Assembly (NCBI RefSeq): GCF_048403405.1
Contig: NZ_CP183135.1
Source: Escherichia coli
GTDB taxonomy: Bacteria > Pseudomonadota > Gammaproteobacteria > Enterobacterales > Enterobacteriaceae
DNA: 64,000 nucleotides
Reading direction: 5' to 3' (one strand)
The notes beneath the pieces were generated by a model. That model was given only the letters and a program-made list of their open reading frames with translations. It ran no database searches and was not told the origin of the DNA. A program made the position numbers and the translations under genes. Of this stretch, positions 37,873 through 40,680 are shown one piece after another; the stretch's first letter is position 1, and every line of letters starts with the position of its first letter.

Positions 37873-38664
37873 TTAATTTCGGGAGAAACTTAAAGTTGCC
37901 ACATCGACAGTTTCATCACACAGGCTTTTGTCCTGAAAACTTTTCTTATTTTGGACTTTCGCCAGCCACTGTCCAATATGAAGAGAAGGTACTGTGACGA
38001 TACCATCCTCATTAGTTACAAAGGTGAGTTCTGCTTTATGAACAGGATGTTTGTGCTCAACTGCATGAGTATGACGGGATGATTTCAGATAACTGACCGA
38101 GTCAAGCTCCATGATAGCTCCGGCGAGCGGGGACGTTTTATACAGGACTTTCAGCTTCACATCTTCACTGAAACGACTTATATCGGATAACGGAATGATT
38201 TCAAGCTCATGCCCCGTTGGAGACTGATAGAGTTGTGCTGGCATCTGCTGTTCACCAGGAATAAAAGATTTCGCATATTTAGTGACAAACTCACAGTAAG
38301 CCACATCATTTCTGCCCTCCCGGCTGACCGGTTTCCATCCTGAAGAGGTTCTCGACCAGTATCCCGGTTTCATATATGTTGACAAAACGTAGCCATTATC
38401 TTTGCTTGCAGACTCAGTTTTATAGACATAATCCGTGGACGCTGGCTTCAGTGTTATTGTCTCTTTCCCGTTATAAATCCGGGGATTTTCAAAGAAATTC
38501 CTTCTGTCAGGAATTGTGCCCTTTGAGGGGAAATTATGACCATAACCAATCTCTGCGGTAATGTTGTTCTCTGCCTGTTTACCTGTAATCCAGACATCGT
38601 GGGCCAGGACATGCCCCGATGCTGTCAGACAAAGAGCTAAGATATAACCTGTATTTTTCATCAT
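37873..38664 (-). CDS. secreted periplasmic protein, DUF4198-like, downstream partner of the TonB-dependent receptor
   Basis: 263-aa ORF with signal peptide MMKNTGYILALCLTASGHVLA; 6 bp downstream of the receptor ORF on the same strand. Family assignment from memory. Confidence 0.5.
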   Translation of the reverse strand: MMKNTGYILALCLTASGHVLAHDVWITGKQAENNITAEIGYGHNFPSKGTIPDRRNFFENPRIYNGKETITLKPASTDYVYKTESASKDNGYVLSTYMKPGYWSRTSSGWKPVSREGRNDVAYCEFVTKYAKSFIPGEQQMPAQLYQSPTGHELEIIPLSDISRFSEDVKLKVLYKTSPLAGAIMELDSVSYLKSSRHTHAVEHKHPVHKAELTFVTNEDGIVTVPSLHIGQWLAKVQNKKSFQDKSLCDETVDVATLSFSRN

Positions 38665-38670
38665 GATTTG

Positions 38671-40640
38671 TTACCACTGATAACGGGTATAAAGACTGAC
38701 AGTTCTGCCTGAAAGCGGCACTCCTTTGCCATTCATGGCAAGCTTGTTGAAGGCATTATCCAGAGCCACTGATGCCTCAAAGCCTTTAACACTTACAGGC
38801 TTATAAGACAGTGAAAAGGAATGTACGGCATAGCCAGCCTGATGGGGATCGCCTTTTTTCACATGCGTGGCTGCTGCCGAAAGTTCAGCACGCCATCCGG
38901 CAGAAACTCCTCCATGACCAACAGGTATACTTATGTCACTGATGAGTGTGTCAGGATTGCCGGAGCCCAGCCATTCCCTGCTGCTGGCATCCATACTTTC
39001 CGTGCGGTTATAAGAAAGCATCCAGTCAAAATAATCAGACTGGTAATTTCCCTGCATATCCCATCCCCAGATACGGGCCCGGGATACATTATAAGAATAA
39101 GAACGCATCCGTTTCATATCCACGCGCGTGGCAATATAGTTTCTGGCATCCGTTCCGAAATATCCGCCTTTCAACTGCAGCCGATCATTGCCTGTAAGCA
39201 GGCCGTCCAGTTGAATACCTGCGCCAATCTCACGGGTAATGTTATTTTCTGGTTTCAGATTAAGGTTAGGTACCCAGTAATTGGGTTTACCCTTGCGGTA
39301 AAAATGTACATCATCCCTGTACATTTCTGCCATTGTGGGGGCACGGAATGCAGAGGATATGGAGCCGTACATCATCAGCCAGTCTGTCGGTGAGACTGAA
39401 ATCGCCGCCCTTGGGGACAGGCGTTCGGCTTTCAGTTCTCCGGCACGGGGATTGAAGCTCTTGTACCGGTCATAGCGGGAACCGACGATAATGTTAACCG
39501 GGTAGCTTTTCATTGTCATTTCATCCTGGAAATACAACGATGTAAAGTCAATGTTTCCTTCCGGATATAGTGTGGCAGAGCCTTCTGGCTTCTGCTGCTG
39601 ACGGTAATATTCAGCGCCATAACTTAACTGATGGGCTCCCGGAAAAATCAGAGTATGACTCCTGTTGACAACATTAACACCGGAGGTTCTGTTGTTTCTC
39701 CATTCTGCCGTTTTGTTGTGACCGTTTGTCTTGATAGTGATATCACTGAGATATAAAGTTGACTTTACATTGATGAGGCTGTTATCCACAGGAGCGTACT
39801 GGTACCAGAACTGTACGTCATTTTGTACTGTTTTTCTGTCACGCAGGCCGCTGTCACCATGTGTCTGAGTGGGATTGCCCGGTTCAGTGGTGTTATTCCG
39901 GTAGAGACGCAAGCTGGCACCTGCTTTGTTACTGTCTGTTATACCGACAGAGCCTTTCGCAAACAGGGCTGCAGGTTTTTCCTTGTTAGGTGCGCGCTCA
40001 CCATCACTTTGATAGATATTACCTCTTTTACGCATAATGACAGAAAGGAGCGCATCTGTTTTTCCGGTTTTACCGAACCAGGTGAGCCCCGAGCCTGTGC
40101 TGTGGTCACCACTGGCGATATTTCCCCACAGACTTAAACCGTTTGTCTCTCCGGGGGAAGGAAATCTGCTGCATCGGCAGTTCTGAAGTCCACAACACCT
40201 CCCAGCCCGCCACTGCCGTACAGACTGGAGTTTGGTCCGCGGACAACTTCGATACGTTTGACGAGTGCCGGATCCAGATAAGTGCCACTGCTTTTTGCCA
40301 TGTCACTGAGTTGACGGATGCCGTCAACAAGAACAAGTACCCCGCTTTTGTCATAGCCGCGTAGATTAAAGGTCTGCCCATTGGTCCGTCCTGCACCAGT
40401 CTGGCTGAGACCGGCAACACCTTTCAGCATGCCGGCTGATGTGACCGCATTCTGACTCCATGGCGTGTCATTCGTGACGACACTGACCATTGACGGCGTT
40501 TCAAATACCGTGTTCTGATTTCCTGTCGCGACAACGGTGATTGTATCTTTAGCCATAGAAGAATGACTGGTCTCTGCCTGTAACCCTATCGGGAGTATGA
40601 TTAATGTACAAATGACGTTTCTGATTACGTTCATATACAT
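38671..40640 (-). pseudogene. TonB-dependent outer membrane receptor with a frameshift near 40150 (or sequence error)
   Basis: N-terminal plug ORF 40134-40640 (signal peptide, TonB box DTITVVA) and barrel ORF 38671-40035 (ends ...LYTRYQW, terminal aromatic) are in different frames; frames switch at a CCGGGGG run around 40151-40157. Confidence 0.7.
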
Positions 40641-40660
40641 GCGAAAATATATGTTAATAT

Positions 40661-40680
40661 TGATATGTTATAACATATCA
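40661..40680. promoter_or_regulatory. perfect 20-bp palindrome TGATATGTTATAACATATCA upstream of the receptor gene; candidate Fur/Zur-type operator
   Basis: Exact palindrome 21-40 bp upstream of the receptor start codon; core TGTTATAACA resembles metalloregulator boxes. Confidence 0.4.

Follow-up and report, generated by a model that had tools for sequence, protein, structure and literature searches.

A mobile receptor-DUF4198 gene pair of Escherichia coli with a predicted Zur operator, its receptor gene frameshifted on an IncF plasmid

Which metal does a gene pair serve when its receptor belongs to the heme receptors and its operator matches the pattern of the zinc repressor Zur, and is the receptor gene of the plasmid copy truly broken? 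These questions are raised by a two-gene module on an IncF plasmid of Escherichia coli (NZ_CP183135.1 in RefSeq assembly GCF_048403405.1), of which a stretch of 64,000 nucleotides, hereafter the window, was analyzed. The module consists of a gene for a TonB-dependent outer-membrane receptor, paralogous to the heme receptors ChuA and ShuA, and a gene for a periplasmic protein of the DUF4198 family, whose start codon lies 6 nt past the receptor stop codon. An earlier note on the window had proposed a metal-regulated uptake pair. This proposal was supported, and it can be sharpened to a predicted zinc-starvation module under the control of Zur. We put the probability at about 0.75 that the module is a zinc-starvation operon of two genes, mobile and under repression by the chromosomal Zur of its host, with the receptor inactivated in the window.

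The exact palindrome that had been noticed 21-40 bp upstream of the receptor start codon, TGATATGTTATAACATATCA, was confirmed at 40661-40680, the ATG being at 40638-40640. As the pattern for Zur we used the structure-based 20-mer for two dimers, TGWNAYRWTATAWYRTNWCA, with the skeleton RNNNYRNNRYNNYRNNNY; as a filter on K-12 promoters, this pattern returned just four sites, all of them Zur targets (Gilston et al. 2014, PMC4219657). The palindrome fits the 20-mer at 20/20 positions and also the skeleton, and it is the only site in the 64 kb without a mismatch. At the base composition of the window, chance would give about 4e-4 exact matches per window, and shuffled sequences gave an expectation of 0.14 matches with two or fewer mismatches. 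The classic 23-bp Zur consensus was matched at 19/23 positions, because the symmetry center of the window allele is shifted by 2.5 bp; the structure-based 20-mer is the appropriate test.

Comparison with validated operators pointed in the same direction. The Zur box of hlyII in strain J96 was bound very tightly by E. coli Zur in an electrophoretic mobility shift assay (PMC5916954); the palindrome differs from it at 2/20 positions, and 15 contiguous bases, TATGTTATAACATAT, are common to both. Zur boxes validated in E. coli extend over the -10 element (PMC5916954), and in the window a putative -10 hexamer likewise lies within the operator. The box thus resembles the validated operators (znuABC, zinT, ykgM, pliG, and hlyII of J96) in pattern, skeleton, and putative -10 overlap, but differs from them in being a perfect palindrome on a mobile element that was assigned from its sequence. 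If the -35 and -10 hexamers are assigned correctly, Zur would occlude the promoter. Regulation of the module by Zur is well supported and, in our judgment, very likely; that Zur binds at exactly this operator is what we infer from the site.

The operator is conserved well beyond the plasmid. In eight lineages whose upstream DNA has otherwise diverged, the receptor-DUF4198 pair is preceded, at a distance of 20-75 bp, by a Zur box with 0-1 mismatches, the sole such site in each 5-19-kb locus. Four of these lineages are E. coli alleles, that of the plasmid among them, and the others are a K. pneumoniae plasmid, Salmonella enterica, Providencia, and a metagenome contig. Two chromosomal alleles have, at the same position, boxes of the canonical GTTA-N5-TAAC type: TGTTATGATATAACATCACA in strain 95-3322 and in Nissle 1917, which fits at 20/20, and TGTTATGTTATAACATTTTA in the avian strain STE15, which fits at 19/20. 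In the E. coli and Klebsiella alleles, GGTTGCA is found 8-9 nt upstream of the box and TATAAC within it, and apart from the short GGTTGCA the upstream DNA of these alleles is little alike.

The pair is 76% identical in an E. coli variant and 80% identical on K. pneumoniae plasmids, and the receptors of Salmonella enterica, Providencia, and the metagenome contig are 51%, 48%, and 54% identical, respectively. The relatives were obtained by protein search and contig look-ups; scans of genome contigs with the DUF4198 protein and with its alignment returned no relatives. Judged from dN/dS values of 0.10-0.31, both the receptor and the DUF4198 gene are under purifying selection. Of 5426 complete E. 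coli genomes, 1117 have the same 3.1-kb sequence, and the module also occurs on 739 PLSDB plasmids, 577 of which are conjugative.

Published expression data appear to include a chromosomal copy. In the assembly of Nissle 1917 (GCF_003546975.1), the receptor gene, the DUF4198 gene, and a CobW-family gene follow one another behind the canonical Zur box. RNA-seq of Nissle exposed to calprotectin was aligned to this assembly, and a trio of genes was the most induced after ykgM and ykgO (PMC10410751): 'FIG00638682: hypothetical protein' (log2 fold change 6.30 in M9 and 6.13 in LB), 'GTPase of COG0523 family' (6.28 and 4.99), and 'membrane; Transport of small molecules: Cations' (6.03 and 5.33). This 32-79-fold induction ranks alongside that of zinT (5.98 and 8.88) and znuA (4.54 and 4.89). 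The authors named 'tonB' among the top five genes, yet the top rows hold no TonB entry (PMC10410751). Most simply, the three genes would be those of the present locus, and 'tonB' would stand for its TonB-dependent receptor. In the same paper, the cloned 'tonB' promoter was unresponsive to calprotectin and 'tonB' was ascribed to Fur (PMC10410751); the lack of response would fit the cloning of a different promoter.

The second gene encodes the secreted DUF4198-like partner that had been proposed, as confirmed by a match to Pfam PF10670 (E = 2e-26). The protein also matched the structure of Zcp (9MHI) with E = 3e-23 over residues 20-261 (242 residues). Zcp (NGO1049 of N. gonorrhoeae), the first characterized DUF4198 protein, is periplasmic and Zur-regulated, and binds one zinc per subunit via H29, H31, and H142 (PMC12663993). 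The partner shares with Zcp (PDB 9MHI-9MHO) the Pfam family, a cysteine pair, a putative signal peptide and, by prediction, control by Zur. It differs in that the zinc triad is replaced and in that its gene is grouped with a receptor gene, whereas zcp is predicted to be monocistronic. The cysteine pair (C124/C249, corresponding to C127/C250 of Zcp) is invariant in all seven relatives. As read from the sequence, the N-terminus resembles a signal peptide (..HVLA/HDVW). The clade of the partner keeps the predicted mature N-terminus AHDVW, a GYGH motif, the residues H22, H43, and H209, and a loop with 4-8 histidines, which reads RHTHAVEHKHPVH in the window. This histidine pattern points to possible metal binding at a site other than that of Zcp.

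For the receptor, the closest functional analogy is ZnuD/TdfJ of Neisseria and Acinetobacter, which is a heme-receptor-like TonB-dependent receptor under Zur control. The receptor of the module is, however, not a member of that family: the intact protein scored 44.6 bits with the ZnuD model NF038289 against a cutoff of 950, and the plug region alone was matched.

On these grounds we propose the following operation of the module. When zinc is sufficient, two Zn-Zur dimers would occupy the 20-bp operator, cover the -10 hexamer, and block transcription. When zinc is sequestered, for example by calprotectin, Zur would leave the DNA, and the receptor and DUF4198 genes would be co-transcribed. The intact receptor would act as a TonB-energized outer-membrane importer that descends from the ChuA/ShuA heme receptors and has lost the heme-ligand histidine of the plug. 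The Zcp-like partner would take the imported metal in the periplasm and keep it available, for example for ZnuA/ZinT-ZnuBC, so that it could be handed on to ZnuABC. Zinc or a zinc complex is a plausible cargo, to which we give an even chance. In the window, the 1-bp deletion would truncate the receptor after the plug, so that the outer-membrane step is lost while the DUF4198 gene is left intact.

We then asked whether this deletion is real. The earlier note had placed the plug and the barrel of the receptor in different frames. This was borne out by the open reading frames (ORFs) and by the placement of plug and barrel with NCBIfam models, and alignment with the intact allele located the frame switch where it had been suspected, at CCGGGGG in 40151-40157 (+ strand). 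Across 3.1 kb, two differences from the intact allele of pS21EC_B (WP_001298664.1, 656 aa) were found. One C is missing from a run of six, and a single-nucleotide polymorphism at 38766, G here and A in the intact allele, replaces Thr626 with Ala in the last barrel strands. Thr626 is invariant in all five intact alleles compared, and its replacement is consistent with relaxed constraint after the frameshift. The truncated product stops after codon 168 and ends with ...DFLPPERQTV. The identical sequence in pKP389-2 and pCREC605-1 is labeled 'frameshifted' by the Prokaryotic Genome Annotation Pipeline. When E. coli records were searched with a 61-bp probe across the site, 17 of 1106 carried the run of five (C5), 16 of them plasmids and one a chromosome. 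The other records differ from the probe, and nine that were sampled, at 98.4% identity, have the one-base-longer intact allele.

The alternative that survives best is an error of assembly in the homopolymer, with an intact receptor on the actual plasmid. The site is a C6 run and C5 is found in just 1.5% of the records, some of which look error-prone: pKP389-2 is also frameshifted in iucB, iucC, and iucD, and two further C5 records have a DUF4198 match that is in three pieces or just 85% identical. The aerobactin region of the window is, however, 100% identical to intact copies. The window is also 100% identical to pCREC605-1 over 32.5 kb, in which the receptor is the sole frameshifted gene apart from insertion sequence (IS) remnants and truncated fragments. 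C5 recurs in at least five plasmids of about 167-172 kb that were assembled independently, and at least two of these (pKP389-2 and pCREC605-1) are from Taiwan; the window has the additional substitution at 38766, in a residue that intact alleles do not vary. A real mutation is favored because independently assembled sibling plasmids carry C5 while their neighboring genes are intact. We therefore regard an assembly error as unlikely, though not negligible, and a real and recent pseudogene of this plasmid lineage as about three times likelier, as far as sequence comparison can tell.

Separately, the iucB, iucC, and iucD frameshifts of pKP389-2 (NZ_CP166761.1) fall in the part that matches 58336-62353 of the window, with two 1-bp gaps against it. 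These iuc genes are intact in the exact matches of the window, and the frameshifts are probably assembly errors in that record. The frameshifts had raised the suspicion that the receptor frameshift was part of a wider pattern of assembly errors, which was rejected, as the iuc region of the window equals that of intact copies.

The next alternative is that the annotated role is right: the receptor would take up heme or hemoglobin for iron, with the DUF4198 protein as an accessory protein for iron or heme and with a palindrome of incidental or secondary meaning. The receptor does have the features of ChuA/ShuA (PDB 9DIR, 9DHE, 3FHH). The homology is full-length, with 42% identity to ChuA over 625 residues (E = 4e-168), and includes the plug and the 22-strand barrel, the TonB box DTITVVA, and the FRAP...His...NPNL region, in which H446 is the kept equivalent of His420. 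The intact protein scored 419.5 bits with the heme-receptor model TIGR01785 against a cutoff of 316.85, and the two fragments of the window scored 146.6 and 245.2 bits, each below the cutoff. Neisseria ZnuD expressed in E. coli supports heme use, so that heme transport under Zur control is conceivable. Plasmid papers place the receptor under iron acquisition, that on pRS218 treating it as a heme/hemoglobin receptor (PMC4155114), and DUF4198 genes are iron-regulated in some other bacteria (PMC12663993).

Several of its features nevertheless depart from that role. Extraction of heme from hemoglobin by ShuA depends on both His86 and His420 (PMC8977872). At the position of His86, all five E. coli and Klebsiella alleles have Lys116, and the relatives from Salmonella, Providencia, and the metagenome have Lys or Ile, so that His never occurs there in the clade. 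No Fur box was found at the receptor-DUF4198 locus in any of the eight lineages, whereas the iuc, sit, and FTR1 promoters in the same window, which served as an internal control, reach 15-17/19 against the Fur box and show the genuine iron systems of the plasmid to be of the Fur type. All eight lineages keep the Zur box instead, and the presumed copy of Nissle is induced together with zinT and znuA. Unlike ChuA/ShuA, whose genes are accompanied by chu heme-utilization genes, the receptor is paired with a DUF4198 gene and is frameshifted here. Taking both sides into account, we consider the annotated role improbable.

Some observations nonetheless weigh against a Zur-controlled zinc module. Besides passing the heme-receptor model and keeping the FRAP...His...NPNL region, the receptor has no His/Asp-rich loop that could be seen in its sequence, such as ZnuD has, and heme or another tetrapyrrole is a possible cargo. 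The zinc triad H29/H31/H142 of Zcp, whose positions were located by comparing wild-type chains with those of the triple-alanine mutant, is Q30/E32/E138 in the partner. A stricter promoter scan made no call at the operator, the hexamers being below its threshold. The induced trio was assigned to the Nissle locus by gene descriptions and agreeing expression levels rather than by locus tags. The frameshift sits in a homopolymer. Finally, the CobW/COG0523 neighbor of the chromosomal copies, first taken as strong support for zinc, was downgraded for its missing CxCC motif, the missing Zur box of its own, and the hairpin that intervenes, although a COG0523 gene is induced along with the presumed operon in Nissle.

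It is very improbable that another regulator (Fur, NikR, or an unknown protein) binds the palindrome, or that it is an AT-rich palindrome that arose by chance. The palindrome is the sole perfect one of at least 18 bp in the window. Perfect 20-bp palindromes also appeared in 17 of 200 dinucleotide shuffles (8.5%), and palindromy alone is therefore weak evidence; the incomplete match to the classic consensus speaks on the same side. The best match to the Fur box (GATAATGATAATCATTATC) within 300 bp upstream of the receptor, however, was 12/19 (7 mismatches), and the best match to the NikR operator (GTATGA-N16-TCATAC) was 8/12 specified bases (4 mismatches), outside the palindrome. Of the likeness to Zur/Fur-type boxes that had been suggested, the Zur part stood and the Fur part did not, and NikR was likewise rejected. 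The exact Zur-pattern match, its closeness to a validated operator, and the retention of the box across genera at the same position all argue for Zur.

The idea of a switch at the C run, by phase variation or programmed frameshifting, through which the receptor would still be produced at some frequency, is hardly credible: a -1 slip on CCC_CCG would, as read from the sequence, regenerate the exact intact protein, receptor genes of Neisseria and Haemophilus are phase-variable via homopolymer tracts, and C5 on plasmids of many sizes and one chromosome suggests recurrent slippage, but six C residues are short for efficient slippage, 98% of the copies are in frame, no stimulatory element was noted downstream of the run in a region that was not folded to look for one, and the tract is not conserved, the Klebsiella allele having C4 with different codons and therefore giving no sign of a conserved switch.

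The features of the module and the Fur-box matches of the control promoters are collected in the table.

Table. Coordinates in the window of the module, its flanking elements, and the Fur-box matches at iron-related promoters
Feature	Position	Strand	Remark
TonB-dependent receptor pseudogene (ChuA/ShuA paralog)	38671-40640	minus	intact allele 656 aa
Truncated ORF, 168 aa (plug)	40134-40640	minus	signal peptide, TonB box DTITVVA, plug domain, then 6 out-of-frame codons and stop
Receptor barrel remainder, 454 aa	38671-40035	minus	other frame; listed ORF begins at internal ATG; TIGR01785 profile positions 180-677
DUF4198 (Zcp-like) periplasmic protein, intact, 263 aa	37873-38664	minus	identical to WP_000977394.1
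Predicted Zur operator, perfect 20-bp palindrome TGATATGTTATAACATATCA	40661-40680	.	20/20 to TGWNAYRWTATAWYRTNWCA
Putative -35 hexamer TTGCAT	40689-40694	minus	GGTTGCA kept in E. coli and Klebsiella alleles, flanks diverged
Putative -10 hexamer TATAAC, within operator	40667-40672	minus	16-nt spacer from TTGCAT
C5 run, site of 1-bp deletion (intact alleles C6)	40153-40157	minus	alignment with intact allele
Segment common to chromosomal island copies, 2.87 kb, 96% identity	37853-40719	.	match covers query 182-3048
IS66-family transposase remnant, cuts module short downstream	37202-37810	plus	annotation of identical pKP389-2 sequence
IS2-like end and transposase remnant upstream of module	40831-41361	plus	pKP389-2 annotation 'transposase, frameshifted, incomplete'; terminal repeat read from sequence and presumably of IS2
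Fur-box match, 2 mismatches	56550-56568		upstream of iucA (aerobactin)
Fur-box match, 4 mismatches	49737-49755		upstream of sitA
Fur-box match, 4-5 mismatches	17192-17216		upstream of FTR1-family iron permease operon

On chromosomes, and only there, the module is directly followed by a CobW-family gene, which is complete in 233 genomes. The location next to the module is reminiscent of the COG0523 zinc metallochaperones of the ZigA type. The gene scored 187 bits, however, against the ZigA cutoff of 600; in the chromosomal loci (10861-12323 of locus L003 and 5001-6463 of locus L017, two chromosomal relatives) it lacks both the CxCC motif typical of these metallochaperones and a separate Zur box, and a terminator-like hairpin precedes it. 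The plasmid copy keeps the promoter and operator, and both the terminator hairpin and the CobW-like gene were removed by the IS66 remnant, which cuts the module off in the window.

The first part of the window (about 1-34000) is a multiresistance region with dfrA17-aadA5 and intI1, catA1, tet(B), blaOXA-1, and aac(6')-Ib-cr between IS26 copies, a content inferred from the annotation of the near-identical pKP389-2. At 26346-27671, next to the end of a Tn3-family transposase, the window has a 1327-bp insertion for a 343-aa IS110-family-like transposase (MENIALIGIDLGKN...), which the siblings pKP389-2 and pCREC605-1 lack. By its size and position we take the insertion to resemble IS5075/IS4321. 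The sole other perfect palindrome of at least 16 bp in the window, GAGCCAGTACTGGCTC (16 bp), lies at 59490-59505, among the aerobactin biosynthesis genes, between the iucB and iucC annotations.

The module is thus widespread and annotated, functionally uncharacterized, and, if our assignment of a Zur-controlled TonB-dependent receptor with a Zcp-like DUF4198 protein is right, commonly misread as a system for iron or heme acquisition. It is routinely counted as an iron/heme virulence gene, and one published study appears to label the receptor 'tonB' and to ascribe it to Fur (PMC10410751). Our literature search found no paper that links this E. coli locus to Zur. If the module belongs to the Zur regulon, virulence-gene catalogs and readings of calprotectin transcriptomes would need correction.

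According to a review of 2013, it was unclear whether an outer-membrane receptor takes part in zinc uptake of enterobacteria (PMC3852070), and the module is a concrete candidate for such outer-membrane entry under zinc sequestration by the host. The intact module could even be the first system for TonB-dependent zinc acquisition in E. coli and related Enterobacterales, which we propose tentatively, with slightly less than even confidence. If this is true, a ChuA-derived receptor would have been re-wired from Fur to Zur, would work without the heme ligand of the plug, and would be coupled to a new type of zinc-capture protein, a DUF4198 protein with a histidine loop. The receptor might then import zinc in free form, as a chelate or porphyrin, or as taken from a host protein. 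Such a system would be carried by about one fifth of the complete E. coli genomes, on IncF plasmids of extraintestinal pathogenic E. coli and on pathogenicity islands, the island of Nissle 1917 among them.

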